Assembly (NCBI GenBank): GCA_045837725.1
Contig: JBEWZL010000246.1
Location: 124,001-188,000 of the forward strand
Direction: 5' to 3'
Origin: Vermamoeba vermiformis
Taxonomy: Eukaryota
Length of the DNA: 64,000 nt
Shown: piece by piece, positions 2,453-54,176 of the stretch
Layout of the letters: every line of letters starts with the position of its first letter
Numbering within the stretch: the first letter of the stretch is position 1
Made by a program: the position numbers and the translations under genes
Notes under the pieces: model-generated
What the model was told of the DNA's origin: nothing
Database searches by the model: none
What the model saw: the letters and a program-made list of their open reading frames with translations, nothing else

Positions 2453-5018
2453 TCCTAAAATGGCGGTTGTTAATGTTTAAACATTATAGCCGCCCGCAAT
2501 TAGAAACGAAGATTGCACAACTTTTAGATGATGATTTAAGACAAGAATATATTTATAGAGCGACAGATTACCCAGATCTAATTGCAGACGGGAAGATAAT
2601 TCCTTGCACAGACAATTCCCCGAAATTACTCAAATATTCTCCGAAATCATTGATAGCAGCGCTACCGACACTACCAAGAGCGTTATATTTATTAGCAACG
2701 GATCAAAACGGAGATTTTTGGAATAATTTGTATTCATGCTACGACCTCATCGATCGATTCAGAACGAATTCAATCCACAAATCAGCAATACTAGCTGTAG
2801 TGTCGAACAAATACAAAAACTCCGAAGTCGGAGAAATTGTCGACATTTTGTGCCGATCAGCGGAATATTTAAAGCCAGACAAGATTTATTTTTACACGCC
2901 AAAAGCTGAAAAAATCGTTTTATTCACGCTTAAAATTCGAGAGCTAAATGTGGACTATTGTTATCGATACGACGAATTAGACAAAGTTAATTATCAACAG
3001 TACGTATGCTCAGTTGTTTCATGAAAATCAACTTGTAATGAAATTTCCTTTTTAGGATTACCGATGAATTCGATGAAGATATTGCAATACTTTCGGTTCA
3101 AAAAGATCTGAATTTTCCAAAGTTGATAACGCCCCAACAATTCAAGATCATTTTAAACGATTTTTCGGACCATTTCTTCAAGAATGAACCCGTCAAACTG
3201 CCAGTGCCTCCGCCACTCAGAGACGGAGCAAAAAATCTTTTGAAATCATCGTACAATGACGTAGATCCATCCGCGCAAATGAAATCAGCGACAGTTTATT
3301 CGGAAGAAAATTATTATATGGACGATGGAAAGAGCAACAATAACAACGATAATACGAATCAAAACAATCGATTGATTTACTCTTCGTGCCGTAGAACGCC
3401 TTCATTAATCTCTGATAGAGACCATTACTCATTATTTCAAATTTTGCAAGTCGATAACGGCGACCAGAAGGACTATTTTTTTCACTTGCGGATCGGTCGC
3501 TTGCCAGTCTGGCGTAGCAGCAACGAGCACTTTGTTCACACAATGAAAGTATCTCTTGAAGAAGCAAAGGCACTCTTTGACTTTTGGTACGTATTAAATT
3601 CCGTTTGCATTACAAGCAGCTGTCAGCTGTAATTGACAAGTGACACTTTGACACCGTGAAAAATATGATGACACGTGTCAAACTTACCAAATTTCAGTGA
3701 TTATTTTTAACAACGTTATTATTATAGGTCGAGATATTTTACTAGAAAAGGGCTTCATTTCACCACTGAACCGAAAACAGTAAGTTACTTGGTACTTTAA
3801 CGAATTTGTTTTTCTAATGGATCCAATTTAGTTGAAAACTGTGTTGCACATCGAAAGATTACCGCACTATCTCGAGTTACTTCGCAAAGGAGAATTTGAC
3901 GTTTCTCTGACCGACGAATTGGTCCAATTATTCCCTTCAGTCCTAGCGTACCTACTCAAAACTGAAGTTATTGAAAGACAACACGGCCCTCAAGAAGCTG
4001 TGAAAGTTATTGACGTAACTTTTGAACAAGGCACGAAATTTCGAGTACATAAGAGCGTGCAATTGTGGGACAAGAAGATCGAATTGTTTATCAAAGCCAA
4101 GGACCCAATCAACGCATTTTTAAGCTACATCATGAGCTGTCATCACGCTTTTCCAAGAAAATTCCCGGAAGAACTCTACGCGAAAATGATGATGCAACTT
4201 GAACGCGACAAAGAATACGAAATGCAAATATCAGCCGATCAAATGATTTTAAGCAATATTTTCAAATCTGCAAATATCGCTTTAGAGCCCAATCGCGAGG
4301 CCATGCAATTGCTCAACGAATTAGTCCAAGACGCTAAACGCACGTGCCAGAGCAATCATCCGGACATACTTCCTATTAAGGAAATTTTTGACATTATCTC
4401 AAATGATGTCAGAATCGAATTCTTGCCCAGCGAGCATGAAGAACGGAAGCTTATTTTCAATAATATCCTATTTGGCGATTCTAAGCTCAAACCGACCGAT
4501 GAAATCGCCGTATGGAAAGTCCATTCGAAATTCATTACAGGTAACAGCCTTAATAGACTACGAAATACTGAATTTAAATTAATTATTTTTTAAATTTCAT
4601 AGCGGATCCGAATAATTGGTATTGGACTGAACTTAGACAGCCGTTATGGCTGCCAATACTATTGACAAAAGGAGAGTTTCCAAAGTCAACTTTAGAGCTC
4701 TTTATTAACGATGAGATACCTCCGAGCACTGTATCATTGTTTTGCCAGATAAAGAAGCACTGGATGCAGCAACGTGGGGGACCTCGCAGCTCACAAATAA
4801 CAACAGCGACTGTTCATGGAGGAGATATAGTTCCAGTGAAGTATATAGTGCTTAATAATCACGATAAGCGTGATGATGCGAACGCAGATGTGCTTGTTCG
4901 GTTTTTGAATCTGTTGGATTCGAGATCGAACCGGATCACCGGCCAATTTATCGCCGCTTGCTGTAATTATTTTGCTCAATATGCTAGCATACTACCACCT
5001 AAGAAAGAGCGTATATAA
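2453..5018 (+). CDS. Multi-exon protein with a degenerate WGR-like domain followed by a helical/TPR-like region
   Basis: Phase-compatible exons join ORFs 2467, 3123, 3832 and 4662. HYSLFQILQV..YFFHLRIGRL..SLEEAKALFDFWSRYFTRKG resembles the WGR domain pattern. Confidence 0.5.
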
Positions 5019-5283
5019 GTGATGAAAAATTTCGACAAGACCGGTGCCGAACGGACTTATACACGACGTTCGAATATTGGCGGTACAATAGAATAAAGCA
5101 TAATCCCAGAGAACTTGAATGAAAGTCGTGTACAGTCGTTCAGTCGGGCTCTTCCGTTTTAAGTTAAGGCCTATACAGACTTCTGCACGCAATCTGGTGG
5201 CAATCTCGTAACCGAGAAAATCCCTTTAAAATTTTATCGGGACGATCTTTATTAGTTCGGCAATAACGCCTTCAACAGAGTGA

Positions 5284-7125
5284 TTATCGAGCTTTAACAA
5301 TATCATCGTAGTCAGAGATGGCGAGCTGGATCTCGTACATGTCGATCTTGCGACCGACGTTGAGTGCACTGAGAGACTTGCCGCTGCGAGTAGCAGGTGC
5401 TTCAGATTCGTTGAGCTCAAGGCCTCGCTTGTTGTACAAGTAGCCGTCATTGCAGAGGACTACATTGTAATAACGATAATCGTCCAGAGGGCACTTGCAA
5501 TGTTCTGGCAACTCATCGCCATTGTTCTAAAATTTGAAGCATAATTAGCACTGGCTACTATCATAAACAACGTTGTCTGATAACAAATGAAAATTTTTAA
5601 GTAGATCTACTCACCACTTCGTTATGGATAATGTCAGCGATCATCTTCTTATAGACCGTCATTGCTTGAGGCTTGTCAGCGAAGTACAAGGTTTGTCTAG
5701 TTTTCGGAGAATTTTTGTCCGTTTTTAAGTGCTCCATCAGCGCGGCACGCTCGTAGATGTAGCCGTCATCAACGACCACAGGGTCATTGCACAACACACC
5801 AGTGATAGCGCACTTGAAGATGTCGGGCAAGAAGACTTTCTCGAGCTTCTTGAGCTTTTGAAGAGTATCGTTCTATGAGTGAACAAAGGGTTAGAACTGG
5901 TCATAACGGATCGGATCTGACCCGCACTTACTAAGTTAGGGAAGAGCTCTTTGTTCTGGTTCATGAAGCTAGCGTACATCATAGGAACAATGCTGTATAG
6001 ATATCAGTACGCGCTATGTATAGACATATTACAAGCTTACCATTTGGCCAGATATTTGTCGCAATCGTGATGTTTGCTGGATCTCGCGAGATCTTGAGCG
6101 GTTTTCTAAAGCGATTGAATAATCTATTTAAATGAAATACCTCGAATACTTACACCCTAAAAAGAATATAATTAATTACACTCGTACCGTCGAATCGATG
6201 ATGCTTACCCTCTCGTCTTTGGCCAGAACGTTGGCGCCAGCTTCTACCAACATTTTAACGACTTCAATGAACCCGTTGTCGGCAGCTTCATGCAAGGCAG
6301 TCTGTTTAACCAATGCGATTTAAGTCTATGTAACTGGTGAAGCGAAGGATATTACTTACGCGCTAGAAAAAAAGTTAGATTCGTTGGTTTGTGGATTTAA
6401 AGTACTTACTCCCTGTTGAGTAGAATAAAGAATAGAGTCGATTGATTAGCACCTTTCTAACGTAACATCGAGGAAATTTTACCTTCTAAAAACACAGATT
6501 AAAAAAAAGTTGAACGAAAATCGGATGTGGTACTTACAGCCTGTTATTGAACAGAAAAAAAAAGAGAGATAAATTAGTACCGTGTTAAATCGATATATTA
6601 TGAACGAACGTACGTTGGCAACGTTAACATCAGCACCAGCAGCAATGAGAGCTTCAACCATTTTATCGACGGTGATCTCATTATCTTCGTCTGCTCCACA
6701 AACGCCGATCAACAAGGTCTTATAGCTCGATGATTAATATATATAATGACTTCGCTATCTCGTAGAGTTGAAACTTACTTTCTGTAACGTGGATGAAATA
6801 AATTAGTTTACCCAAATTAGGAAATCATTTAAGTGGATACTTACACCGTATTTCTATATTGTTGGAAATAACAGAATAATCAATTAGTTACATGGTTGAA
6901 CTCATTAGGTGCACGAACTTACGTCCTAAATAATAATCATTATTTTTGAACAATACATAACTAACCGTTAATTTACGTACCTTTTTATTAACATCGAACT
7001 TTTCAGCGATCATCTTTTTCATCGTCTCGAATGATTCTTTATCGCCATGGTGGCATCCAAACCAAGCATAATCCGACCTGCGGAAGAATGTTAGTTCTCA
7101 ACTCTTTCAACAGTACTTCGTACAT
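5284..7125 (-). CDS. Ankyrin-repeat plus tandem U-box protein (putative E3 ubiquitin ligase); 16 coding exons, 8 of them internal microexons
   Basis: Exons (minus): 7125-7124, 7077-6981, 6925-6923, 6853-6845, 6781-6779, 6718-6614, 6540-6538, 6485-6483, 6412-6410, 6362-6360, 6301-6209, 6156-6154, 6105-6041, 5992-5932, 5872-5615, 5526-5284. Splicing gives ...[15 protein letters not shown]...[51 protein letters not shown]..., then U-box LPDIFKCAITGVLCNDPVVVDDGYIYERAAL..SPKTR and a second degenerate U-box LPEHCKCPLD..NDGYLY. Confidence 0.88.
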
Positions 7126-8265
7126 TATCGTAGCGTTTGAATAGGCAATACTAGTAGCTTGTGGTGTTGATTTAACTTCAGCGATACAAATAATCTCGGC
7201 AATACCTCGATAAATTGCCGCAATTAAAATTGATAAATTCATGAATTTGTGGACTGGATCCAGTCCAAATATGGAAGAAATGTAGGTAAACTCCACAACG
7301 AGTAACGGATTGATATCTGGACATGGTTCTGCATATTTATGGAATTCTATTCCGCCCGATGCCAGGATTTCGTTCTTCGACTGAGTTAGACGAACAAGAT
7401 GCGACGTAACATATTGCATGCAACGAATAAGGGATCAAGTGTAATGCTAACGCCGATATCGTATATCCATTCCTGCCTTAAAATTGCTAAAACATTTGCC
7501 ACATTTGGATCCCGTCGCAATCTCAAAAGAAACACAATTGGAAACCGCAACGACAGACGCTGTTCTGACACTACTGGCTTAATCATGACGCAAATACGAC
7601 TTAATATACAGCATCATCGCGGACGATCAAGATGGAAAACTTCCGATGCCAAACGGGTACAAGACAACTTGCTGAATAAAAGAGCTAAACGATAGTATTA
7701 GCGTTACTCGAAACTCATTTCAAATGGATCCATTCGTGGCCGCTTAGTATACTTCTGATCATTGATCGATTCGATCAAAAGCCTAAGCTCGGAATTTAAA
7801 TTCCATAGCGATCCTGAACGTCGGATCTGCTGCAGCTAAGCTATTAAGTCAATATCCCCACAATTAATCGGAACGTACGTACCTTCTAAATAAGGTAATG
7901 CCAATTTATTTTATCTGATCCAAAGAGCCATTGGAATTCGAGATTATCACCTCAAGGGACCTTAGTGACATTGATCCTATCATTGTAGCACCTAGGTAGT
8001 CTTAATAAACCACATTTCGTTTCGGTTTGAAATTATCCACATTTGGTTAATTAAAATTAAACGAAACTTGTGGATCCTTAGCACGACTCTTCAAACAGAA
8101 GATTTACGTCCACAATTAGGAATCTATTATAGAATTCCCGCTCTGTAAAGCAGGGGCGTAATTTTCTCCAGGGCACTGGCCCTGATTGATTTTTCAGTGA
8201 TAAAAGGCGATCAATTTTTCTGGTCATTTCATCCTCAAATCTAATCAACAACAACACACCTCAAT

Positions 8266-10099: not shown

Positions 10100-11715
10100 A
10101 TGGCTTTAAGGTTGAATGTTCTCTTTCTTGCTTTGGTAGTGGTCGGATTCACGACCAAAACTGCTTTGGTAAGACACTTAATTCATTTTCAACAAATAAC
10201 TGTTCTCTTTTATTAATATAATACAATTGATATTAGGCAGCTGAACCAGCATGGCTAGCCGGCAAGCCAATGAATCAATGGTTTGAAATTAATGGCACGA
10301 GCGGTGCTGCTGGAGCGGTTTTAAATGCTTGGGGCAGCTTAATTCTTCGTGAAGATACGACCGAATTATTTGTTGCTGCTAGTGGCGGTCACGGCGACTC
10401 AAGCGACAATCGAGTTGTCTCGATCAAGTTGACTGACGATCAGCCGCAATGGATCATACGCGCCGAACCAACGCCTGTTGAGCAACGAGTAGTTGATGTA
10501 GCGTACTATCTCGATGGCTTACCTTCATCTCGTCATAATTATCAACATAACTTTTGGGTCCCTGCCATCAACCGAATCATTATGTGTGGCGCCAGATTTA
10601 CTTATGGATCTGCGTACACGTTTCTCACAGTCGACGGATTCAATCCAGAGACGAACAAATGGGACCCTCAAAACACTTGGCCTAATGTTACAATCAGCTA
10701 CGGAGTCGTTCGTGAACGTAACAGCAGTATCATCTGGACGAATGCGCTAGAGCGAGTAGATCTCGAACAAAGAACGATAACACTGCCCATTACTAGCACC
10801 GCTAACGTTGAAATGCGCTGGCCAGTAGCTCACGATAGTCTTCGCCACCAGTTGTTTTCATTGCAATGGGGCGATAGTCAAGGATACGGCACAGGTACGG
10901 ATCAAAGTTCTATTATAGAAACACTAAATCTATTTATAAATAAAATAATATAATATAAGAATATAGTCTATATCGCCTTTAAATCTTAGTTTAGTAATAA
11001 CAATAATTTTAATCAGACACGAAATTTCTTGATCCCAAACATCGATGAAAATAAACTAACGTATTGCTGTTAATAACAAACAGGCATTCAAGCGTCGCGT
11101 ATTCCGCTCAACCCGGGCAACACACAACTCCAAGTCACGTTCAAGAGCAGTCAAGCAGTCGACATGTTCAGTGCTGAAATGCCGACCTATGCAGCCATGG
11201 ACTACGATCCCATCAACGACCGATTTTTGTTCTACAACGGTCAAGGTACTTCTGCTGGTCGTATCTACGTCATCACTCCGAACGATGGCAATGAGTGGGA
11301 TATGAGTATTCTGCCCTTAGACGCAGGATCCGCTACACCAGACGTAGTACCAGCGTCAGGCATCAATCGCAGATTTCTTTATGTGCCTGGACTCAACGTG
11401 TTCGTAATGATGCCGCTTCAAGAAGGCAATATCTGGTTCATTCGTGTCGGTAACTTCGGTACGTATCAAATGACATTTTTGACATTTTGACACTTTGACA
11501 CTCAGTACGAACTTCAACAATTTGACATGTACTAATGCTAACCTTTAGAGCAAATTCCTCAATCGGCGCCTTACGTCGCGAGTCCTGAAGTGTCAACTCC
11601 TCAGTCATCGAACACACCGACAAGTTCGAGCGGCCCTAAAGCTCAAACAAGCATTGCTCATCAATTGGCCTGCTGCGCTCCTTTGTTGGTGCCGTTGGTT
11701 AGCTTCGTGTTTTAA
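10100..11715 (+). CDS. Secreted, probably GPI-anchored beta-propeller-like protein, copy 1
   Basis: Signal-peptide exon (MALRLNVLFLALVVVG...), 4 exons. Motifs ASGGHGDSSDNRV, YYLDGLPSSRHNY and MDYDPINDRFLFY; S/T/P stalk and a hydrophobic C-terminus. Confidence 0.75.
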
Positions 11716-12033: not shown

Positions 12034-13366
12034 ATGACTCTTTGGCGTTATTTCCTTATCGTTGTTTTGGTCACCGTTGGTTGCATCTCCGAATCTGCGT
12101 CGGTAAGCCTTAATTGATTCTACTCAGCCTTAGTATCGTTCAATTACTAATATTTTTATATAAATAATAGGCAGCTGAACCAGCATGGTTGGCAGGCAAG
12201 CCAATGAATCAATGGTTTCAGATCAACGGAACGAGCGGCGCTGCTGGAGCCAATATCGTTGCTTGGAGCAGTTTTATTCTTCGTGAAGATACGACTGAAT
12301 TATTTATCGCTGCTAGTGGTGGTCATGGCGACTCTTATGATAACCGAGTTGTCTCGATCAAGTTGACCGACGATCAGCCGCAATGGATCTTGCGCGCCGC
12401 ACCAACACCTGTTGAACAAGTCTTGCCAAACGTACCTTACTATCTCGATGGCTTACCTTCATCTCGTCATAATTACCACTACACGCATTGGGTCCCTGCC
12501 ATCAACCGAATTGTTTTGTGTGGTGCGCGAGGAGTGTATGGATCTGCTTATGCTTTTCCTACAGTTGATGGATTCAATCCAGATACGAACAAATGGGATC
12601 CAGCTAATACTTGGCCTAACATTACCGCTGGCTCGTACGGAACCGTTCGTGAACGAAACAGCAGTATTATTTGGACGATCGGTTTGGATCGCGTGGATCT
12701 CGAAGCAAGGACTTTAACTAGTCCAATTACTAATAAGGCTAATGTTATGCTCCGCTGGCCTGTTGCGCATGATACACTTCGACATCAGCTGTTTTCATTG
12801 CAGTTTGCTGATGGCCAAGGCTACGGCGATGGTAAGTAATTACGTTTCTTACTGTCACGCCTCGTAATTATGGTTAGATCACGTGGCGCGAAATTTCATT
12901 TTTTTTTCTGCCCGAAAAATGCTGACAATATGACCAACGGAACTGACCTATTAATAGCCAGCATTCAATCGTCGCGCATTCCGCTTAACCCTGGAGACAC
13001 GCAGATTCAAGTTACGTTCAAAAACAGTACCGCACTGCAAATGTTCAACGACGAAAAACCAACGTACTCAGCCATGGACTACGATCCAATCAACGATCGA
13101 TTTTTGTTCTACAATGGCCAAGGTGCTTCTGCTGGTCGTATCTACGTCATCACTCCGAACGATGGTAATGAATGGGACATGAGTATTCTGCCATTGGCCG
13201 ATGGATCCGCCCTGCCTGAAGCTGTGACGAGCTCAGGCATCAATCGCAGATTTCTTTATGTGCCTGGACTCAACGTGTTTGTGTGCATGCCGCTTTCACA
13301 GAGCAACATTTGGTTCATTCGTGTTGGTAACTTCGGTACGTATCAAATGACACTTTTGACACTCTT

Positions 13367-13398
<32 letters not shown>

Positions 13399-13595
13399 CT
13401 TTTGACGCGTACTAATGCTAACCTTTAGAACAAATTCCTCAATCGGCGCCTTACGTCGCGAGTCCTGAAGCGTCAACTCCTCAATCAAACACGCCCACAA
13501 GTTCGAGCGTACCAAAAGCCACTACTAGCAACGCAAATCAACTTGCAGCCTTCGCTTCTTTGGTACTTCTTCTTAGTTTCCTTTTCGTGTTATAA
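12034..13595 (+). CDS. Secreted, probably GPI-anchored beta-propeller-like protein, copy 2 (tandem paralogue)
   Basis: Same exon structure as 10100-11715 and high protein similarity to it; signal peptide MTLWRYFLIVVLVTVG. Confidence 0.75.
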
Positions 13596-13905: not shown

Positions 13906-15397
13906 CTATGCAGTGAGAAAGCCTTCGTCTTCCTCGCCTTCCTCGTCCTCTCTTTCCTCTTTAGGCTCTTGTCCCCAAACTACGACGCCATAAATCTGGG
14001 GCATAAGCTCCTCCAGGCGATCAATAGAGATGACAGCCATCTGCCAGGAGCTCCTGTCCCTTTCGTAGTGGGGATACTGCGCCGTTCCGCGACGTTTGCC
14101 CATAGGACCAGTGATAGAACTTTTGTTACGCGTGGCCAGCCTCCACTGTTGGAAGTAAAATTTAGGTCGATCGAGACGGCACCCATTCACCATTCGGTCC
14201 CAGTCATCTTCTTGCCCTGACTCGAGATAAAGATCCAGAGACAAGTTGTCTTGTCTGGCGATTATGTCATTTTGGGGCTCCGTTCTGAATATAACCACAG
14301 CTGGGTCTTCGTTAGGGCACTGAGACGCTAGGTCTTCAGCCCACTCACGAGCTGCAAACCAGTCATCGCCCAAGTAAAACGCACCAGGTCCTTCTAGTGG
14401 CATGAAGTCCGTACGACGTGTTGAAGAAAGCTTGAGACATCGAATGATGTTCAATGCATTTGACCACGTGGTGCCGTGGTACATAAGGAAATAGCCTCCG
14501 TTCTCGGCTTCTGCCCATAACTCTTCAAGAGCCGTTTGCAGTCTGCCTTCAAAGCCAGCAACAGTTCTGGGCACGTTGAAGACACACAAGTCGTCCCTTG
14601 TTTTAGGATGCACATCTGGAGTCACTTCCCCGACGTATGTCCAGGTAAACGGGGCAGATGTGCAGCGGTTTGCCTGAAGGAACCGAGCGTTACCCAAGAG
14701 GACAGAGACCTGGTCAAGAAGATTTGTATGGTCGCCCATCTTTTTCACAGCCTCGACGATGCGTCGAGCACCTTCAGATGTAAAACAAAAGTGTTGGGTG
14801 AGAAGATCTTCCTCATCGGCGAAGGAATCCGGCAGAGAAGCCATCTTCATGTTTAAAAATATGCTCAGTGCATATAAGTCCTCTTCATGATGCCGAAGGC
14901 GGACAAATTGCTTCGTAAGCCATCCTTCGACCTAAGTACGAAGGTGAGAAAAAGTTTTAGATTCGCGATTCGAATTGTGTAAAGCAAATTTTACGTTAAT
15001 TACCTTTTTGGCATCGATGCCTGCAAGTTCGAATTTAGCTAGAACAGGGAGAGCCCATGAAGGGGTACCTTCATCTTCAGAAGACTACAAAAAAACCGAA
15101 TCAGTACGAATCGCGTCGACCACGACCTTTAGTTTGCTTACCATAATCCTCTGTGGTACGCTGCTTTTCGAAGGTGCTAATGAGACCTCCGTCGGGGCTT
15201 TTTTGTGCTGAACAACTGCGTAGTTGACCGAATGTTGACCACCTGCGAATTTTAAAAGAACCGGATTTCGTGCTCCATTGAGCAATACGTTGATAGGAAA
15301 ACCAGCGTTACTCTGTGGAATGGACCTGGCCATAAGGAAGTTAGTTAAACTTAGTCTTCACTCATTTCAGTACTTACCGAATAGATGCTTCGAGCAT
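13906..15397 (-). CDS. DUF3990-like / ADP-ribosyltransferase-fold protein, copy 1 (5' end uncertain)
   Basis: The large last exon has MYHGTT...TDF...GAFYLG..AAREWA..PAVVIF..WDRMVNGCR..ITGP..WQMAV. Upstream phase-0 exons join in frame (VEGWLTKQF; SSEDEGTPSW). Confidence 0.65.
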
Positions 15398-16287: not shown

Positions 16288-17540
16288 CTATTTGACTTCT
16301 CTAGGCTCTTGTCCCCAAACAACGACGCCGTAAATCTGGGGCATAAGCTCCACTAGGCGATCAATAGAGAAGACTGCCATCTGCCAGGAGCTCTTGTCCC
16401 TTTCGTAGTAGGGATGCTGCTCCGTTCCGCGACGTTTGCCAATAGGACCAGTGATAGAACTTTTGTTACACGTGGCCAGCTTCCACTGTTCGACGTAAAA
16501 TCGTCGATTGAGACGGCACCCATTCACCATTCGGTCCCAGTCATCTTCTTGCCCTGACTCGAGATAAAGATCCAAAGACAAGTTGTCTTCTCTGGCGATT
16601 AAGTCACTCTCTGGCTCCGTTCTGAAGATTACGACAGCCGGATCTTCACCAGGGCACTGAGAGGCTCGGTTTTCAGCCCACTCACGAGCTGCAAACCAGT
16701 CATCGCCCATGTAAAATGCACCTGGTCCTTTTCGTGGCCTGAAGTCTGTCTGGCGGGTAGACCTGAGCTCGAGTCCTTCAATGATGCTTACAGCATTTGA
16801 CCACGTGGTGCCGTGGTACATTAGGGAATAGCCTTCGTTCTCAGCTTTTGCCCGTAAATCTGCAAGTGCCGTTTGCAGCCTGTCTTCAAAGCCTGCAACA
16901 GTTGTAGGCACGTTGAAGACACACAAGTCGTCCCTTGTTTGAGGGTGTACCTCTGGAGTTACTTCGCTGACGTATGTCCAGGTAAAAGGGGCAGATGAGC
17001 AGCGGTAAGCTTGAAGGAACCGAGCGTTATCCAAGAGGACAGAGACCTCGTCAAGAAGAGTTGTATGATCTCCCATCTTTTTCACAGCATCAATAATGCG
17101 TCGAGCACCTTCAGGCGTAAAACAAAAGTGTTGGGTCAGAAGATCTTCCTCATCCGCGTAGGAATCCGGCAGAGAAGCCATCTTCATGTTTAAAAATATG
17201 CTCAGTGCATATAAATCCTCTTCATGATGCCGAAGGTGGACGAATTGCTTCGTAAGCCATCCTTCGACCTAAGTACGAAGGTGAGAAAAAGTTTAGATTC
17301 GCATGTAATTAGTAAATTTAAAGTTAATTACCTTTCGGGCATCTATTCCTGCAAGCTCGAATTGAGATAGAATTATTTGAGCCCATGAAGGGGTACCTTC
17401 ATCGTCGGAAGACTACAAAAAAAGTGATAAGTACGAATCGCGTCGACCACTACTTAGCTTACCATAATCGGTTGTGGTAACGAGCCTTTCGCGAGTGATA
17501 ATGAGACCTCTGTTGGTTTATCTTTTTTTCTCAGCTTCAT
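16288..17540 (-). CDS. DUF3990-like / ADP-ribosyltransferase-fold protein, copy 2
   Basis: Near-identical paralogue of 13906-15397 with conserved introns. ATG at 17540 (MKLRKKDKPTEVS); motifs MYHGTT and GAFYMG. Confidence 0.68.
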
Positions 17541-19454: not shown

Positions 19455-19880
19455 TATAGTCTGTCTCTTCTATCTTTGATTTTAATTAACTAATGAAAAA
19501 TATTCGCAAATTGCCGAATATATGATCAAATTTATAGTTGCGTTCAAGGTTCACTGATATTTCCGAGTTCGGATCGCGGCATCGTGACTTTAATTCCCGA
19601 AAAGCAATGGTCAAAATATACCATAAGAAATCCACAATAATATCTCGATTATTAAGATATTGTGTCTTAATCAATTTTTTTGAAGGAGATCTAAAAAAGT
19701 CTTACGGCCCACGGCGAATTGACCTCCGCTTCATGCCGATTCCGCGCTGACGGACGCCACGCACCAAGGTAAATGCAGCCTTTGTAACAAACTAAGACCT
19801 GCTAATAAAATTAATAAACGATAAAACCATTGACGGTACAAAAAAAATTTAACACCTATTATTATAATAATTACAACATA

Positions 19881-20519
19881 ATGCAAAGAATTATTATTAC
19901 CTTCATTTTACTTGGAGCTGTTGCATTTAATGTAGCAGATGCGACTTGGGTCTCGCAGCGCCAGTGCGACTATCTTAATAACACTTTCGGCGCAGCGAGT
20001 GTTCAAAATGGCAATTGTGTCCAAGCGGCCAATCCTAAAGATGGCTATTTGGCTTATTCCTGCACTGAATTTAATTTTGTAACATTAATTTGCCAAGATG
20101 CGGCTTGCCAAAATTGCAAACAACGAGAAAATCATCCGTTAAATCAGTGCACTGATATCTATTCACAAGGAAATGGAAGATATTTTTATCAGTGCTTCCC
20201 AGACGATCAGATCGACTTCGAAAAAGTGATCGACTCGCAAAGCTACCTACTCCAATCGTTCTCTTACGGCGATTCAATCACCAAACCTTGTGATGCCAAA
20301 CCTACCCAAATATTTGTCAGTCCAGTTGATACTTGCTTCCCCCAGCGAAGAGACAGAGGATCTTACATTACCTGCAGCGGATCAGAAGTCGAATTTAGAC
20401 AGTACGATAATATCTCCTGCGCCAATACACCGGTTAGAACATATAGAAACGCGTTAGATAAATGCTATAGTGTTGAAGACAAGCTTGGGGAAGTTCTCTC
20501 TTGTGTATTAAGGAAATAA
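19881..20519 (+). CDS. Secreted cysteine-rich protein
   Basis: Single exon with a signal peptide (MQRIIITFILLGAVAF) and regularly spaced Cys in two internal halves; architecture similar to 52636-53253. Confidence 0.75.
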   Translation: MQRIIITFILLGAVAFNVADATWVSQRQCDYLNNTFGAASVQNGNCVQAANPKDGYLAYSCTEFNFVTLICQDAACQNCKQRENHPLNQCTDIYSQGNGRYFYQCFPDDQIDFEKVIDSQSYLLQSFSYGDSITKPCDAKPTQIFVSPVDTCFPQRRDRGSYITCSGSEVEFRQYDNISCANTPVRTYRNALDKCYSVEDKLGEVLSCVLRK

Positions 20520-26491: not shown

Positions 26492-28762
<2,271 letters not shown>

Positions 28763-36470: not shown

Positions 36471-39400
36471 ATGGAGGATCTAGATGACGAGCAGATATGC
36501 AAAGTCTGCCGCACTGAAGGAACGCCCGATCACCCGCTGTTCTATCCGTGCAAATGTAGAGGCAGTATTAAATATGTACATCAAGATTGCTTGGAGCAAT
36601 GGATTCGCCACTCCAAGACAACCAAATGCGAAGTAAGATTGAACAATAATTACCCGGAGAACGGAGAAAATATTTTTAATAATTATACGGGAAATGCAAT
36701 ATTATAATAACATGGAAAACGGTCATTATATGATTTTTTGGTTCAATTTAAATTTTCTGGATCCGACTCGAATGTTACTAGCGTTTACATGCGTATTAAT
36801 AATCGATTCATCCACAAGTTTTACGTTAAATAATTCATACTAATAATATTTCATTATTATAGCTCTGCAAACATTCTTACAGATTTACTCCAAGTAAGTT
36901 ACAATTTTTCTTTTATTCTTCCGAGATCCATTATTACAGGGCAAAGAGAAAAATCTATACAATATTCGCGGCCATTATTTTTACATTTATTAGCTAACTT
37001 TTCGCCCACAAGTGGCTTGATCTGACAACCAAGACTTCTTCAACTAACTTTCCATATTATTCCTAGTCTACGCTGAATCCACGCCTAAATTCGTCGGATT
37101 TATGCCGTTCATTACTGCGGCTCTACGCAAGACAGTCAGTATTGTGCCTAAAGGCTTGAGGCTGTCAGTTGTTGGTCTGACGTGGCTGGTCATATTGCCG
37201 CTGATCACTTCTATGGCCTGGGAAATGTATTTTGGATCCACGGCAGATATACTCGTAAATGTTGCGATAAATAGTGGCAATATCTCGCTGAATAACGGCA
37301 CCATCGATGCCGCAAAAACCAACGCAACGAATTCAAACGGTACCAAGCCCAATGATCACGTGCCTATTTGGGACATGTTTTCCGCACTGATGCATGGAAC
37401 ATTATTCAAAGGATTTGTGTCTAGTACTGGACAAGCTGTCACCGTGCCAATGCTGTAAGCTTTGCATTATTTTTTCATTTTAAAATCAATAATAGCACTC
37501 TTATTCTTCGCGAAATGAATTAATGACAACGCGAAAATCAATATTATTTGGTCGTGCAAAATAATAATAGAAGCGTTATTTTCATTGAATTCAAACTACT
37601 AGGCCGTGTCAATTTCAACTAATTTTTCTTCAGTTTGATTGCAATTACACGATTGATATTAATAATTCTAGTATATTGAAGACGGTCAAGCTAATTTTTA
37701 ATTATTATTCATAGAGCCAAGTCATTCGTGGCACACAGTTTCTTCGGTGCCTTTACCATGGCGTCAATTTTTGTCATGTTTCTAGGCTTGTTATCGCTAT
37801 TTGAATACATCAAAAGTTTGTACCGCAACGAAGCCATCATGCGTCGATTGGCCGCGATGCAAGCACGACAAAATAACAACGGGGAAGATAACAACGGTAA
37901 TGCTAATCAAGCTGAAGACAATCTCGAACAAGAATTGATTGAAGAGGCTGCTGCGGCTGAAGAGCAAGAAGGAAATCAAGAGGAGGCTATGGGATTCGAT
38001 GAGTTGCGTAAGTTTTTTTTCGATTTTTATCCAAACCTGTTTTTGATACGTCAATTTTTTTGGCCTTATTTGGATAATATACTATTCTTTTTAATTACCA
38101 TTATGATCGTGAAATTTCACTCGATTAATAATTTGCTTGCAGTTGGTGTGAGCGGCTCCATGTTCCAATTTGCAGGCATTGTAATTTGCGTCATTTTGTT
38201 CCTCGGAGCTGTGATTGGTGCATTCGTGTTTATTCCTAATTTGATTGGCCGAGTAGCTTTATTGGTAAGTACTCGAATATAACTAACTTTAATTATAATG
38301 ATCCTAGTTTTTTGTAAAATTAAATGACTTGCTAATTTTATTCATTCGTAGAACCCGGATCTAAAACAAGGATTAAAATCCACGACTAATGAAGTGATTC
38401 AATATTTGATCCAGCCAAAATCTTCGACAAATGCTACGGCAATGGCACATGACAGCGAAACAACGCTCGATCATTTAGAAAAGTTTAGTCAAAGTCTTAC
38501 AGCACGAGTTTTCATTGGGTATATCGTACTCCTATTAATGGGATTCTTGTGGTTGTGCTTTATCTGGACGATTAATGCTGTTTTTGGCTTGTCCATTGGC
38601 AAAGACGCGATGTACAATGTCGGTCGATTTGTGCGAAGACGAAGAAGAAACGCGGCTCAGAATAACAACAACAACAATAATAATAACAACGCTAATCAGA
38701 ACGCTAATGCCGAACAAAACAACCAACAAGTCGTAGAACAGCCGCCACAAATTGATCAAAACAACCAAGTTGACGTTAATAATAACAACGAGCAACAAGA
38801 CCCTGGTCAAGTTCAACAGGAGCCAGCTGTCAATAACGGTACGTTTTCATGAAAAAGGATTGATTTTGTCATTTCATGAAAAGCTAATTGCGATTCGCAG
38901 GTGCAGAGCCGGTCAATGGGAACAATAATAATCCACAAGAAGACGTTATCGAAGTTGAAATTTCATTCACGAGCATTCTCGAGTCGACAGTAGTGCTGGT
39001 TCAATTCATTTTCGTTATTCTCAAAGTCGTGCTGCTCATCTTCGTCAATATCCTGGCACACCCTGCTTTCCTCGGCTTTATACTGTTGAACGCTGTCACC
39101 ATGTTCAATCAGCCTGAGACCATCACTTTCGAGAATCACAGCCACGATATTATGCCCGCAGAGACCGTGGCAGTGGTCGAGCATGACGAGGCCGTGGAGT
39201 ACAGTCAAAGCACGAACAATGTTAACAGTACTGCGGAGGCGATAGTCGAGGTCGTTGTGAGTAACATCACGCAAGCAGTGAGCAATGTGACAGGCGTCAA
39301 ATCGGATTCTTTGTCGACAACTAGTCCACATTCAACTCCATTCCCGCACTATTTGACACTCATTTTGGTACGTACCATGTTAATCTAATTTAAATACATA

Positions 39401-41604
39401 GGCTAGTCCATAACATTTCAAATGAAACACTTAAATAATTTAAACAATTAATAACTAGACGAATGCAACGACGTGAATTTTATTTATGCCGCTCTAATTA
39501 TGATTAAATTTGAACGGTAGTTTTCTTCTCGTCTCTAATGTTCTTATTATTTGCAGTACTGGGTGATCGGCTTCATATATTTGCATCTGTTTTGGGTTGT
39601 CGTGCAAACAATCCGACGAGTGGGCAGGCCAGGCATTCTGTGGTTCTTAAGAGATCCAGACGATCCGAACGAACATTTCATCCGCGATTTGGTCACCAAG
39701 CCGATGTACAATCTCGTGCGCGCTATTTTTATCTCAGTGGCTTTGCACACTATGTTAATCTTTGTTAACTTGACTTTACCACTGCACGTGATCCAACTGA
39801 TCCAAGATCGTGGTAAGAAAATCGAAACTTGATCTCTAAACTAATAGAATAGTATCAAATGAGCATAACATAGAATGATATAATATTAATAGTAATATAG
39901 TGGTAATTAAGTACTAATATGGAATTTCTGTTCAGGCCTGATTGCGTACAAGATTTTACCGTTCAATTTCCGATTCTACGAAGCGTTCACTGAAGTAACG
40001 TCATTCGCATTATTGATCAATTACTTCGTGCCGTTATTGTTCAAATATGTCAAGCCGAAGGACGCAGTCATGTACTTGATCCGCGAGTGGTTCGCGTTTA
40101 TCGGAGAATTATTGGAAATTACTCCGTTCTTGTTGCCTACTCACGCCAACAATGCCGTCGTACCGAATAATAATAACAACGTTAATAACAACAATGAAGA
40201 TGCGAACGACGAGAATAATAACAATAACAATAATAATGGACCTCAATTGCAAAATGTTGGTGCGCTGCCCAAACCGAGCTTTTATGTGCTAAGAGTAAGT
40301 CTAAATATGATTTTTATTAAATATGTATTCTAATGTTTATTTAGATTATCGTATTTGGCTTGGCTACTGTCGGTTATTTAGTGCTCATCAATTTGATTCT
40401 CATTTGCTTGCCTCGTACGGATTTTAAAAATGTGATGAAATTTCATCCTAATAATTGATTATTTTATAGTCATATTCGGACGTCTGATGATCATTTTTGC
40501 CACGAGAGTGTTGAACTATTTGATGGACAAGCCGAACCCTCCTGCAAGTAAGTCACGGCCATATTTAATTATTATTATTATTGCATCATTGGTATTAATA
40601 TTTTATGGTCTTAGTTGAATCAACAGCTGCCATTAACGATCTTTACGCGTACTTTTTTGGCGTGGTCTTTGTCAGCGCTGTTTCATCGGGCATTGTGCTG
40701 CTAGTCTCGCTTTATAACCGCATGCACAATCGTTTACGAGCCAATCAGCAGCTGCGCCAATTCGCCTTTGAAATCAACGGCACGATCGTTGTCAAGGCCC
40801 TGTTCGTTGTGTGGCGGTTAGTGGCTTGGTTGGGCACGTTGGTCGCGGTCTTCTTTGTCATCCCGCTGTTATTTGGCATCGTCATCGACTTTGCCTTGCT
40901 GATGCCATTCAGAGTGACCAACTATCAAACAGCTATATTCTATCCATTAGGCGTAAGTACCGCTTAAACTTGGTGTTGTACGTGGATCCGGATCTAAACT
41001 TTTTATTCCGTAGAACTACGTTACTGGTCTTATAGTGTTCAAGACATGGCACTCAATGATGAAACTCGAGCTCGAGACTCGATGGTTTGCAGTTTGGACG
41101 CAATTGCAAGCAGACAATTACCTCAACTTGACGCACTGGTGGGTGTTGCTGATCTTGCCGCTGACTAAGTCCCTTGCCACACTGTTGTTCGTGCCGTATT
41201 TCTTTGCGCGTGGTGTCATCCCTCTATTTGGTAAGTATACTACTAGTACCTCCAAATATAACCAGATCCTTTGGAACGGACCTAAAATTTTTACGGATGT
41301 GCTGATTTTTTGCTTGAATATGATTATTAATATCGATATATTAGGCCTATCAACAGTTATTGAAGCAACAGTATTCAGATTCTCGTTTATTAGCTTTGCG
41401 AGTCTGCTTTTGTTAGTCACTTTGACACGAATGGCCGTTGTGTTTTTGCGCAGATTGCATCAGAAGATTATTGACGACAGATACTTGCGTGGCATGCAAC
41501 TGCATAATTATGAGAACGCTAATCAGCAACAACAGGCTCAACCTCAAAATGACGTCGCTAACCAACAAATTAATCCGCAACAGAATGATATCGCTGTTCA
41601 ATAA
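36471..41604 (+). CDS. MARCH6: MARCH6/Doa10 RING-CH membrane E3 ubiquitin ligase
   Basis: [40 protein letters not shown]-domain [15 protein letters not shown]; many TM segments; C-terminal [12 protein letters not shown]. Confidence 0.95.
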
Positions 41605-44082: not shown

Positions 44083-47000
44083 ATGTAAGTAAGCGGAAGC
44101 AGATGCTTGGATCGCGATCTGCTTTCATCTTTCGCCTTTCCAAGAATTTTAAAAAATATGTTCTAGCTATTTAAATAACATTACTTCATTGATATAAATT
44201 TTAAGCCTACCATTCTATTTTTAAATTTGTTTGGGCATTTAAAATTAATCTTTATTCTGAAAATCGAGACTATTTTAATTAGCGCTACTAATATGGTAAT
44301 TCTGTATTAATAATATTATTATAGGGAGGCCATTAGAATACACTATTTGTTAAATGCCGCTTTCAAGCATTTACTTCAGATCTTCAAAGATCGCTTCCGC
44401 CAGAAAACAAACACAGAGTGGACAGATGGGCCAGAGAGTGGCAAATATTACCTTAAGAATATTAGTATGCTCGAGAGGTGCACTTCGGACAAGCGAGCTG
44501 CCGTTCGATCAGGCATTTCTTCGGATTGGGACTTGTCCACCCTCGTGACTGCTATCCTGCATATTGATTTGGCTCCAACAGCCCAAAGAACCAAAGAAAA
44601 CATTCATATCGACCACATTAAAGAAATTCGAAACTACTTGGCGCACTCAACCAGCCAAGAGTCGATCCAACTCGATCAACAAAAGTTCGAACAGTTCTTC
44701 AAACAGCTCAAAGAGGCATTGCTATTCTTCGGCGAGAGTGAAAAAGAGATTGACAAGTATCACAATAGCGATATCAATTCATTCAGCTCGTCTTCAGGAA
44801 CAACAGATCCCGAGTTCACGCGGATGAAGAACGAAGGTGAAGCAGCCGTCAAGTCGAAACAGTTCTCAAAAGCAATAGAGTGCTTCACAAAGGCACTTGC
44901 ATGCACCAAAGTTAGTCAGAACGAACGAGCTGCAGTGCTGGTGCTGCGTTCAGACGCCAGTTTTGAGCTGCGTAAACAACGCAAAGCCAACAATGACACG
45001 AACTTTGATGTTGAGGCAGAGGAGCAGATGTTGAACAAGAGCTTGGCTGATCTTCGAAAGGCACGACAGTTGATGCCCAACATGCCAGACTTCTTCGCTA
45101 AGAAGGCACGAATTATGCTCGAAAAGCGAGACTTCAAGAAAGCTATCAAAGGTACTTACCATATATGGTCAATCATTTTAAAATATTAATGTGACTAACG
45201 CTGCTTATATAGCGTACAATGTCGCCATTGCATTGGATCCGAACAATGAAGAGCTGAAGATCGCACGAGGTGACGCGTTCAACCAAAATGTCAAGGCTAC
45301 TTCCAACGATCCAAGCAGCCTTCCAAGCACAATGCAAGAACGACTCAACACAGTAAGTCCTAAGTACCATTTGAATCGTCTAACAGCCAATAGATGAATT
45401 ACAATCAAGGCACAAAGCTTACAGAAGAGGCAATTGAAAATTTAATTAAAAAGATGGGCGGCGACGATGACGAAGGACACGGCGACTGTCTTCGTGCTCG
45501 AATGTTGTTAGAGAACACTGCTGGTTTGCCGAAGTTTGAGCAGGCGTTTGATTTGTTCATGAAAGCGGCGAACAAAGGCAACACCGAGGGCATGCTCCAA
45601 GTGGTACGTATTCGAACACTATGACTGCCCATAGACTAACCGAGTATAGTGTGTAATGTACAGTTATGGCCAGGGCGTTGTGCGTGATGCCCAAAAAGGT
45701 GCTCAGTGGTTTGAAAAGTTAGCACACTGTCCTATCAAGTCGAAGTACATTCACACTGACCCTTGTAAGTTCTTGCTCTTAAGGTTTAAAAGTCCTAACG
45801 AATATTATAGACGTTGCCAACGGTCAGTTCTCGTATGGCCAGTGCTTGATTGACGGTATTGGAGTTCCTCAAGACACTCAAGAAGGCATTAAGTGGATGA
45901 CCCTCGGAGCTGAGCACGGAGACACCTCCGCTTTGATAACACTCGGCAACATGTACCTCTACGGAATTCACGTGCCCAAGAACGAGAAAAAGGGATTTTC
46001 AATGATGCGTGACGCCGCCTTGAAGGGCTTAGCAATTGCAATGGACAGCGTTGGTGCTTGTTACGCAACGGGCCGTGGTGTTGACAGGAACTTAGTGGAG
46101 GCCAGGAAATGGTTTGAAAAGGCTATCAAAGCGGGCTACCACCAAGCACACAGTAATCTGACTCTCCTTGAAGACATGGAGGCGAGAGAGCCTGACATGG
46201 ATCCTACAGGCATTCCAAATGGTACGTATGGCTTGCAAACACACTGTTGGGCAAGAGTTGACCATCCTCTCAGATCAATTGTCTGCGGTTCGAAAGCTCG
46301 TGGAGGCGTCAACATCAGTTCCGCAAGTTAGTACAATCTCGAATGTTTCGCAAGAGCTCGTTAATATCTACAAATGTGTCACGAATTCAACCACTCCATT
46401 TGGCAAACGAATGCTTGAAGGCTTTTCACACATGTTACGAGCCATTCAAGTCGTCGATTACTGCAAAGTCGATGGCGTTACTGAAAGCACGGCGTTGCTA
46501 TTTGTTGAAGAGTTGTCAGCGGCAGCAAGGATCTCAGAGAAGATTGTATTCATCCCTCAAAGAGACGTCCCTGTGATGACCAAATTGATCGCCAACGCCA
46601 TGCGAAAGGACGAGACTGAAAGCGTTGCATTGTGCCACGCGCTCTTGATGATGCAAAATCCTCAACAGATGCCAACAGCCATGCAGTACTTGCGCTCGGC
46701 GACAAGAAAACACCCAACGTCAGCAATATTGCTCAAGTACTACGCGACTGCTCAAGTTTTGTGTGGCAAGAAAGATGGATCACTTTCATCGTTGACTGAA
46801 GCCATCAAAGTCAGCACCAAGAAAGACCCGTCGTTGTACTTGCCTCAAGCGCAGTGTTATCGCATGCTTGAACAACATCGCAAAGCCATTCCTGCGTACT
46901 TGGAGTGCCTTGAATGCTGTGAACCGGAGTCCTTTGAACGACCGGATGGTAAGCATTGATATTACGGGGATTACAAATACTAACCGTTGAATCAGCTTGC

Positions 47001-47978: not shown

Positions 47979-48287
47979 TTGAAATCGCAGTTCGTTCGTC
48001 GGCAAGATTTTTTTCTTTCCTCAACAATCAAGAGGAACGATGAAGGAGAACAATGGCAATAAGAAAACGGTCGCTAAAGATGAACAATAAACGCGCCACG
48101 TTACCAGCAGCAGCGATTGAAGTTGCACCAAAAATTTTCACGATTCTAGCGGAATAGCTCTATCCAGCACTGGCAATACAATCACCGTTAGAACGCAATA
48201 TGATGCAAGATCAATTTGGAATTTAATGCATTGAACTTTATTTGACACGTGTCACAAACGAAACGATCTCAGAACGGAGATGCATTC

Positions 48288-52635: not shown

Positions 52636-53253
52636 TTAGAATCCAGTGCAAGTAGCAATAAAAGGTAAGGGGAAACTAGGATGCATGGTGCATGTGTTAG
52701 TGGGGATATTGACAGACTGACCAAGCTGTTGGCAATTGGCACCTTGGTAGAGATTCAGCGTAGCGGATCCGTCTTTGGAGCAGGAAATGTAGACCGATTG
52801 GTAAGGATTAGAAGATGAATAAATGACGCTATTATGGCACTGATTGATAGACGAGGCTGCAATATAATATGGATCTCCGGGGCAATCTTTTTCCATGTAA
52901 AATTGCAAAGTGCCGTAGCTCGATCCATAGACAGAGTAGTCGGGAGCGCCAGAAGAGCAAGTAAGATAAAGATTCTTATTGCACTCGCCCATAGACTGAA
53001 CGATACCCACTTTGCAAGTAGAGCACGTCGGAGATCCTCTGCAATTGTATTCGGTGTATTCTGAGCCTGAGCAACTGCCGTAGTTGGTAGATCCCCATAA
53101 ACTGTAGCAAGATCCAGTAAAGTAGGTGCCCCAGCCTTCAATAGTAGTGCCGTTGCATCTTCTATTCAAAAGCCAAGTAGATTCGACCGACGAGATCGAG
53201 GCAAAAATAAAGACGGCGGAGAAAATGAGTGAGGCAATCGAAAAGATCTTCAT
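52636..53253 (-). CDS. Secreted cysteine-rich protein
   Basis: Single exon with a signal peptide; the mature N-terminus TWxxxRxC and the Cys spacing are shared with 19881-20519. Confidence 0.75.
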   Translation of the reverse strand: MKIFSIASLIFSAVFIFASISSVESTWLLNRRCNGTTIEGWGTYFTGSCYSLWGSTNYGSCSGSEYTEYNCRGSPTCSTCKVGIVQSMGECNKNLYLTCSSGAPDYSVYGSSYGTLQFYMEKDCPGDPYYIAASSINQCHNSVIYSSSNPYQSVYISCSKDGSATLNLYQGANCQQLGQSVNIPTNTCTMHPSFPLPFIATCTGF

Positions 53254-54176
53254 TTGTGGTTATCTGTTTCTAATTTTAAGTAAATTAAATTCGTTTTTAT
53301 GCCTAAACCATAACTTACATTCTTTCAATTTCCGTCTTTTGAGGTCTTATTAATTTTCTTATTTTCGTTTTGGTGCGCAAAACGTCAGTCGCCTCTTTTG
53401 CTTTCGCAATTTTGATTTTTTGACGGGACAAATTGTCCGGATTGTTACATCCAAGCGTCCCATTATCACTTGGGGCTGCATACAACCTGATAATATTCGC
53501 GTTAGAAAGGATAGGATCAGTCACGGTTTTTTTGGTAGCTAAAACATTATTTGTATTTATTTGTTTTTAACGCCAAGTTTAGTATTACCGTTTTAACTAA
53601 TGGATAGCACACCATTACCACTTATAGAGTACACTCGACTTGAGCGTTCGTAACTTGGATCGCAGCGGTGCAGTATACGAGATTTTGTTTGTACAAGCAA
53701 GTGAAGAATGTTTAATAATATTACTATTTAACGCGATTCGAAAATCGAAAATGGGAATCTTATTATTAGAATTTTAGTGGTTGACAGGTAAGATATTTTG
53801 ATCAGATATTTGTTTTCACGTGAAAAATTCAAAATAATGTCGGAGAAACTACGCGCTCGAGCAAACTTATTAAAATAGATTTTTCTGGCTATGAAAATAA
53901 TAATAATAATTGTGTTAGAGCAAAATTTATACTAATCGATTAAATCATCTTCTGTAGCCAGCATTATTTTAATAACCAAGTATAATACTTACAAATGTGC
54001 CCAATTACTCTATTCTGTCTTTTATCATCGGCGACTGAATAGTTTTACGCCGCGAAAGTTCCAGAAGATCACGACCGGCAAACAAAATACCGTGCCGGCC
54101 GCGTTTTTTCCCTTATTCAGCCTCGTTATTGTAAATAGAAGCGTATTAATACCATACCGCATATTTATTAAGAATA

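Follow-up and report, generated by a model that had tools for sequence, protein, structure and literature searches.

Predicted single-codon microexons in the ankyrin hairpins of a putative U-box ubiquitin ligase gene

The closest described counterpart of the gene considered here is the expanded "nank" (NACHT-ANK) family of the truffle Tuber melanosporum, whose members are described as carrying "dozens of 3 bp mini-exons" or "tens of codon-sized microexons", with alternative splicing serving to diversify the ankyrin recognition domain (PMC9815663, PMC4986451, PMC3689799, PMC10197012, PMC13449251). The truffle case is taken here from passages which cite the original study (Iotti et al. 2012, Fungal Biol 116:261-275). 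The present work concerns a comparable arrangement in a stretch of 64,000 nucleotides (nt) assigned to Vermamoeba vermiformis (contig JBEWZL010000246.1, positions 124,001 to 188,000; hereafter the window), in which eight predicted microexons of one or three codons lie within the three ankyrin beta-hairpins of a predicted U-box ubiquitin ligase gene (minus strand, about 7419-5284 of the window). A first-pass annotation, made from the letters of this DNA alone, had proposed the microexons and stated that it knew of no description of such arrays; in this respect the truffle genes, as those passages present them, constitute a published precedent.

Very small exons are also associated with other systems. 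The schistosome micro-exon genes of DeMarco et al. 2010 reportedly have most of their coding sequence in symmetric exons of 6-36 nt and encode secreted products. In recursive splicing, an intron is removed stepwise at AG/GTAAGT ratchet points, where an acceptor abuts a donor and nothing is left in the mRNA (slashes here and below mark exon borders). The human gene RPS24 is described as having three consecutive microexons of 3, 18 and 22 bp (PMC12207440, PMC11162997). In plants, conserved coding microexons of up to 15 nt complete conserved domains and are pervasively misannotated, and their flanking introns tend to be "detained", i.e., spliced late, according to the cited parts of Yu et al. 2022 (PMC8831610), while a single-nucleotide exon is on record in Fusarium CYP621A (PMC12940212). 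No other array of single-codon exons was found in the literature on consecutive or tiny exons or on microexons with ankyrin, and nothing relevant was found on microexons of Physarum or the Amoebozoa.

Microexon codons, hairpin loops and splice signals

The gene model comprises 16 exons, namely eight ordinary ones (A to H) and eight microexons (m1 to m8), which were joined by coordinate with a script. Together they give 1248 nt of uninterrupted coding sequence (415 codons and a stop), and the frame is open over this length only when every exon is joined. All 15 introns run from GT to AG and measure 46-88 nt. Seven of the microexons are of 3 nt and one is of 9 nt, so that they account for 30 of the 1248 coding nt, all of them inside the three hairpins, whereas exons B, C and D, which carry ankyrin helices, have ordinary lengths of 97, 105 and 93 nt. 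The 11 introns that flank the microexons (55, 69, 63, 60, 73, 52, 70, 47, 58, 52 and 48 nt) are all in phase 0. Reading of the sequence and the script agreed with the first-pass annotation in the coordinates and flanks of all eight microexons on the minus strand, in the 47-73 nt phase-0 introns around them and in the placement of the helical cores on ordinary exons.

The contribution of each microexon was assessed with a hairpin profile derived from 54 canonical hairpin-centred windows of 33 residues, taken from 119 ankyrin proteins. Full inclusion scored 79.8 bits and ranked first among the 256 combinations of inclusion and skipping, as expected from the earlier proposal that canonical hairpins are rebuilt when every microexon is included; omission of all eight gave 42.8 bits, and each of the eight single skips lowered the score (62.1-76.9 bits). 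Hairpin 1 follows exon B (6981..7077), which encodes the helices of the first, capping ankyrin unit and ends in ...VNKK. Here, m1 (6923..6925; TTTAG/GAC/GTAAGT) supplies the conserved Asp, m2 (6845..6853; TATAG/AAATACGGT/GTAAGT) supplies Lys-Tyr-Gly with the conserved Gly, and m3 (6779..6781; TACAG/AAA/GTAAGT) supplies a Lys; skipping them singly leaves 70.4, 72.5 and 76.9 bits, respectively. Hairpin 2 follows exon C (6614..6718), with the helices of repeat 2, which ends in ...VNVAN and gives a hairpin-profile match at 6664-6614. It is built from four consecutive single codons: Ala from m4 (6538..6540; AACAG/GCT/GTAAGT; 69.7 bits when skipped), Lys from m5 (6483..6485; TTTAG/AAG/GTAAAA; 67.6 bits), the conserved Gly from m6 (6410..6412; AACAG/GGA/GTAAGT), whose loss causes the largest single drop (62.1 bits), and Arg from m7 (6360..6362; TCTAG/CGC/GTAAGT; 66.1 bits). 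Exon D (6209..6301) then opens with TALH and encodes the helices of repeat 3, after which m8 (6154..6156; TTTAG/GGT/GTAAGT; 72.1 bits when skipped) provides the conserved Gly of hairpin 3, ahead of exon E.

The identity of these codons matters beyond the length of the loops, since none of 2000 variants, each with its microexon codons exchanged for sense triplets drawn at random from these introns at unchanged lengths, reached the real score (mean 46.5, standard deviation 3.8, maximum 63.9 bits). The ankyrin period of about 33 residues, with GxT(P/A)LH seven residues after (D)VN, emerges only with the microexons in place: the T-to-T spacings of the full-inclusion model are 39 and then, from the T of TALH, 33, the latter being the value given in the first-pass annotation. 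Each of the 11 loop introns, if read through, brings in a stop or a frameshift, which argues that the segments between the microexons are introns and not coding inserts.

The arrangement is not one that chance would readily produce. The pattern AG-NNN-GTAAGT occurs at seven sites in the window, both strands counted, and six of them fall within 6154-6927 of the minus strand; in 200 windows simulated with a first-order Markov model the pattern appeared 1.5 times on average and at most 5 times, with no one-strand cluster within 800 nt larger than 2. There are 72 GTAAGT hexamers in the window, seven of which lie in 6100-7000 of the minus strand, and an AG at -5/-4 precedes six of these seven versus one of the 65 elsewhere (binomial P = 1.8e-7, with the frequency of AG taken as 0.055). 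The three loops, which make up 72 of the 1248 coding nt, hold 11 of the 15 introns (P = 2.6e-11). A relaxed scan for YAG-N(1-15)-GT[AG]AGT returned 19 further sites elsewhere in the window; of these, two were read in context, at 14351 and 16688, and both lie within ordinary coding sequence. The array is therefore specific to the U-box gene as far as the window extends. The microexon array is a real, non-random sequence feature.

An alternative is that the microexons are never used, each loop being a single long intron (262, 312 and 103 nt) that leaves a shortened hairpin, and the small sites being decoys, relics or ratchet intermediates. The direct joins B-C, C-D and D-E are likewise in frame, they yield the form that an ordinary gene finder would predict, and the aquaporin gene of the window has an intron of about 200 nt. 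This alternative is nevertheless very improbable, given the concentration of AG-NNN-GTAAGT in the array (six of seven sites), the fall from 79.8 to 42.8 bits in the fully skipped form, and the fact that the retained codons encode ankyrin-consensus residues which no random set equalled. Moreover, where one site serves first as acceptor and then as donor, the chemistry of splicing itself retains its three bases in the mRNA. The codons of the eight microexons are very probably present in the main mRNA, as judged from the sequence.

The donors are consistent with efficient use of the microexons. GTAAGT follows seven of the eight microexons but only one of the seven ordinary exons of the same gene (Fisher test, 0.010), and with six introns from two other genes included, the ordinary set gives two of 13 (Fisher test, 0.0022). 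All 15 donors match CAG/GTAAGT at 5-7 of its 9 positions; m5, with 6 of 9 matches, is the sole microexon with a weaker intron side (GTAAAA) and also the sole one with the consensus exon side. The perfect intron side of the microexon donors (GTAAGT) offsets an exon side that is fixed by the coding requirement. Nine of the 11 loop introns contain a YTRAY branch motif, at 12-44 nt from the acceptor, and the loop introns match, in both size and signals, the introns of two other genes in the window, 6PGDH-like and aquaporin. The acceptor of m5 is a tandem one, TAGAAG (6483-6490, minus strand). Use of its second AG would create a zero-length exon, AG/GTAAAA, and hence drop the Lys in frame; a minor isoform might originate here.

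A homologue offers a separate view of the loops. The exon that encodes the U-box (exon G) was the query of a HMMER search against 1.84 billion representative proteins, and among the 150 matches listed one protein of 396 residues, P0054, was alone in giving a significant alignment beyond the U-box region (E = 4.9e-41). Aligned with the gene model, it covers 293 residues at 32% identity (E = 3e-43), spanning the ankyrin part, the linker and both U-box modules, and Pfam assigns it Ank_2 at 83.9 bits. The alignment gaps lie in the helices, leaving all three hairpin loops ungapped; each hairpin keeps the Gly of GxT, and the T-to-T spacings are 37 and 34 versus 39 and 33 in the model. These full-length loops count further against the idea that the microexons are unused. 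P0054 and its cluster mates P0152 and P0154 are found on contigs of 1308-1740 nt, while the 72-residue members P0151 and P0153 are on contigs of up to 271,752 nt and read off into ...VS... exactly at the position of the G-H intron of the gene model. On account of the short contigs and this read-through, the three full-length sequences look as if they derive from spliced mRNA of an intron-bearing organism, which would also make the G-H intron position common to the gene model and the homologue; all three have identical, full-length loops. Another match, P0019, was considered and set aside, as it has a short ankyrin match of 44 residues and a different overall domain layout. A word-based search with P0054 returned mostly generic ankyrin proteins, P0054 itself being the only one among the 120 listed with a U-box. 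No relatives of P0054 were found in metagenome, genome or viral contigs, and no relative of the U-box exon was found in metagenome contigs.

Predicted splicing of the array and rival readings

We consider it quite probable that this is an intact gene of the expressed type, whose loops are assembled from eight genuine microexons through stepwise, intron-defined splicing with full inclusion as the default. With introns of about 50-70 nt, the organism would have to define introns rather than exons: each short intron would have its own donor, branch region and acceptor and would be removed as a unit. Since an exon of 3 nt cannot hold acceptor and donor complexes at once, adjacent introns would be removed in sequence, each step ligating one codon to the growing exon, in a process akin to recursive splicing but with one codon retained per step. 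The exon-side contacts of U1 and U5 would be supplied by the single codon or by the upstream exon already ligated to it. The late splicing ascribed to introns next to plant microexons, in the cited passages, fits such sequential removal. Five introns within 312 nt, parted by single codons, come near the physical limit for a spliceosome, and the array, which implies ordered splicing of this kind, may serve as a compact natural substrate for testing it. The default product would contain all eight microexons and have canonical loops; some in-frame skipping may occur, but nothing in the anatomy requires it. Default inclusion of all eight is likely, because seven of the eight donors are GTAAGT and every single skip lowers the profile score.

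A different role for the same exons was envisaged in the first-pass annotation, i.e., that they are cassette exons by which splicing tunes the recognition of the ligase. Since the microexons are in phase 0 and multiples of three, all 256 combinations stay in frame and up to 256 isoforms are conceivable, and the microexons sit in the hairpins, which form the binding face of ankyrin repeats. The tandem acceptor of m5, which could drop a Lys, is in line with this proposal, and the same reading is published for the truffle NACHT-ANK genes, as represented in the passages cited above. Several features argue the other way: the donors after the microexons are the strongest in the gene, which fits assured inclusion better than regulated skipping; loss of the Gly or Asp microexons would damage the hairpin, as the lower ankyrin score of every single skip also suggests; conserved structural residues (D, G, G, G) occupy four of the eight microexons; the loops of the homologue cluster are identical and full-length in three of three sequences; and the one such gene in the window gives no sign of an expanded receptor family. 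We regard diversification by splicing as unlikely. The earlier statement that introns are concentrated at specificity residues holds in part, in that 11 of the 15 introns are in the beta-hairpin loops, but the microexons are not purely specificity residues, since conserved Asp and Gly positions are encoded as well.

The first-pass annotation had also raised diversification at the DNA level, whereby recombination or gene conversion would swap single codons with the introns as homology arms. The modular layout is compatible with this, and nothing else speaks for it. No tandem repeats were found in 5900-7200, nor were there donor cassettes or meaningful repeats, direct or inverted, in 5000-8200; the likeness between introns is at the level of shuffled sequences (mean local score 13.3 versus 12.7; maximum 22 versus a null maximum of 26); and the window has no other ankyrin-coding DNA. 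Such codon swapping is hardly credible at all. The dense introns are better seen as an evolved structure of the hairpin-coding DNA, presumably without any part in recombination.

As to how this structure arose, the dissimilarity of the introns and the lack of tandem repeats led to the rejection of both a recent burst from an introner family and the tandem duplication of intron-plus-codon units, while targeting of protosplice sites was rejected since most junctions are not AG/G. With the residue after VN taken as position 1, hairpin 1 has introns after positions 2, 3, 6 and 7, hairpin 2 after each of positions 3 to 7, and hairpin 3 after positions 5 and 6. The intron after the conserved Gly is common to all three hairpins and three other positions are common to two, a pattern that could reflect introns older than the duplication of the repeats, or parallel gain.

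Several observations weigh against default, stepwise inclusion or limit the evidence for it. The hairpin profile was made from canonical repeats and by construction rewards canonical loops, so that its scores tell of a canonical loop restored and not of inclusion in the cell. Introns m7-D and m8-E have no YTRAY at 8-45 nt from the acceptor, and the only YTRAY of intron B-m1 lies 42 nt from it. Of five sequencing runs identified, none of which contains half of the query words, four were compared with 5900-7200. Two raw RNA runs with the same species label placed no reads on 5900-7200 and provide no test of splicing, and the one contig that was placed (255 nt, 6066-6320) is unspliced and probably DNA. 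The ankyrin part is covered by a single homologue at 32% identity, whose origin from mRNA is itself a deduction. Insertion at protosplice sites does not account for the intron cluster, most of its junctions not being AG/G. Default inclusion is the weaker half of the claim, because alternative splicing is reported for the truffle precedent in the passages that describe it.

If the array is spliced as proposed, direct joins between the helix exons are what gene finders and spliced aligners will predict, giving a plausible but wrong protein that lacks 10 residues of the binding loops, and the error will go unflagged because all the junctions are in phase 0.

The encoded protein and neighbouring features

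Outside the hairpins, the model begins with a putative first coding exon, exon A (7124..7419, 296 nt), which has an ATG at 7419, an open frame and a GTACGA donor; no Pfam family was found on it (open reading frame 7039-7434 scanned), and only its last 20 or so residues align to P0054. Exon B also aligns to P0054, and the open reading frame 6176-6319, which contains exon D, matches Pfam Ank (PF00023) at 35.5 bits (cut-off 21.1). Exon E (6041..6105, 65 nt) encodes the last ankyrin helix and exon F (5932..5992, 61 nt) a linker that aligns to P0054. Exon G (5615..5872, 258 nt) encodes the U-box domain, as the first-pass annotation had recognized: it matches Pfam U-box (PF04564) at 42.3 bits with a cut-off of 21.4 (E = 8.3e-11). 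Exon H (5284..5526, 243 nt including the stop) has no Pfam match by itself and aligns with the second U-box-like module of P0054, appearing as a second, degenerate module. From these Pfam matches and the exon H alignment, the product is predicted to be a small ankyrin and tandem U-box ligase. From what is established of the two domains, the ankyrin part would bind the substrate and the U-box the E2, and the three hairpins are likely the substrate-binding part of the predicted E3 ligase.

The HMMER search with exon G gave 679 matches at E <= 1e-3, and a majority of the 150 listed contain two U-box stretches, which suggests a sizeable family of tandem-U-box proteins. In a Pfam scan of 124 listed matches (150-520 residues), a U-box was found in 123 and Ank_2 in 7; other N-termini among the 124 comprise Sel1 in two, TPR in one and a kinase in one. 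The listed relatives (P0001-P0150) are mostly of about 200-500 residues, with varied N-termini, and mostly come from unnamed metagenome records. No near-identical protein was found in the protein collections searched, and a word-based protein search with the U-box exon gave no match.

The gene might also be decaying or silent, its structure a relic with no functional protein. No near-identical protein being found is in keeping with this, as are the RNA runs, whose lack of reads on 5900-7200 is no test of expression; a third sequence run likewise had no reads there and is likewise no test of expression. A relic is exceedingly unlikely, however, given 16 exons in frame, 15 of 15 introns with GT-AG borders and a U-box that passes the Pfam cut-off; eight tiny exons would not keep perfect signals under neutral decay.

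Elsewhere in the window, a palindrome, TGACACGTGTCA (core CACGTG), is present in five copies with at most one mismatch, three of them exact, versus 0.10 expected (3669-3680, 27978-27989, 48243-48254, 50568-50579 and 55058-55069). At three sites ATTTTTCACGG(TGTC) follows it within about 5-15 nt, the two making up a composite motif, and one copy is inside the intron of about 200 nt in the aquaporin gene; the palindrome may represent either a small repeated element or a common regulatory site. No RNA family of Rfam was found in the window.

Several predicted genes of the window are duplicated. Two close paralogues on the minus strand, 13906-14931 and 16288-17268, have open frames of 341 and 326 codons, and a scan of the former at E <= 1e-3 gave no Pfam family. 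The Atlas clusters nearest in language-model features are DUF3990-like (0.96), with Cnidaria, Mucoromycota and Ascomycota mixed; a cluster with an Exotoxin-A catalytic domain is a weak match (0.83) and a lead at most. A two-exon gene occurs as a tandem duplicate on the plus strand (10237-11490 and 12171-13415), both copies starting with AAEPAWLAGKPMNQWF..., and the part scanned (10237-10953) has no Pfam family. Two Cys-rich paralogues, 19818-20519 (plus) and 52636-53259 (minus), are apparently secreted, with a hydrophobic N-terminus followed by TW..R.C.., and the one that was scanned has no Pfam family. The gene at 44314-46959 (plus) encodes a HEPN_DZIP3 domain and TPR, then Sel1-like/TPR repeats, an architecture usually discussed for proteins of conflict or immunity type. 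Long low-complexity runs of Asn, Glu and Asp mark the predicted proteins at 28214-28762, 38352-39388 and 39911-40333 (plus), among them a multi-pass membrane protein at about 37048-41604.

Comparison with known single-codon and microexon systems

A ratchet point of recursive splicing leaves no bases in the mRNA, whereas each single-codon microexon of the U-box gene would leave one codon. The gene shares with the schistosome micro-exon genes symmetric microexons whose skipping keeps the frame, and in the latter such skipping yields protein variants; it differs from them in having 30 of 1248 coding nt in microexons and in encoding a ligase of cytosolic type. The plant microexons and the 1-nt exon of Fusarium are, in the passages cited, usually isolated or two per gene, with no single-codon runs described there, and about 50% of the plant microexons are multiples of three, as compared with all eight here. 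Human RPS24 is similar in that a 3-nt exon lies among consecutive microexons that ordinary aligners miss; it is set apart, according to the sources quoted, by vertebrate exon definition, long introns and a location at the C-terminal end of a ribosomal protein, and by having one 3-nt exon, alternatively spliced, in place of seven.

The truffle nank genes come closest. As in the passages which describe them, there are several 3-bp exons per gene in ankyrin-coding sequence, skipping of which keeps the frame, and in both cases these exons have been discussed as a means of varying a recognition domain. Exons of 3 nt with canonical borders in ankyrin-coding sequence were found here as well (seven of 3 nt, together with the one of 9 nt). 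The nank genes, as they are there described, have a NACHT N-terminus of NLR type, form an expanded family, contain tens or dozens of mini-exons and are reported to be alternatively spliced; the U-box gene has eight microexons, is one gene in the window and is read from DNA alone. No Pfam family, and thus no NACHT domain, was found on its N-terminal open reading frame 7039-7434, and its C-terminus is a U-box. Judged by protein identity, the source organism is not T. melanosporum, since the best identities in collections that include NCBI and UniRef are no more than 51% for the U-box exon and 37% for the 6PGDH-like exon. For the latter, Planoprotostelium fungivorum gives the top match, at 36%, with fungi next in order. 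The neighbouring genes, for an EGF_3 and Kelch membrane protein, a HEPN_DZIP3 and TPR protein and Asn-rich proteins, are presumably also unlike those of a typical ascomycete.

The resemblance to the truffle raises the idea that the hairpin codons became exons independently in the truffle NLRs and in the U-box ligase, as a selected device for combinatorial variation of recognition. This appears rather improbable to us; were it true, up to 256 isoforms from one gene would set which substrates a ubiquitin ligase marks. In a related reading, some process may seed introns specifically into ankyrin-hairpin DNA. Why ankyrin hairpins are affected can now be put to the test, as selection for variability at the splice level versus a mutational bias of intron gain. 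Compared with the truffle genes, the locus apparently represents a second case of codon-sized exons in ankyrin genes, in another protein family and in another lineage.

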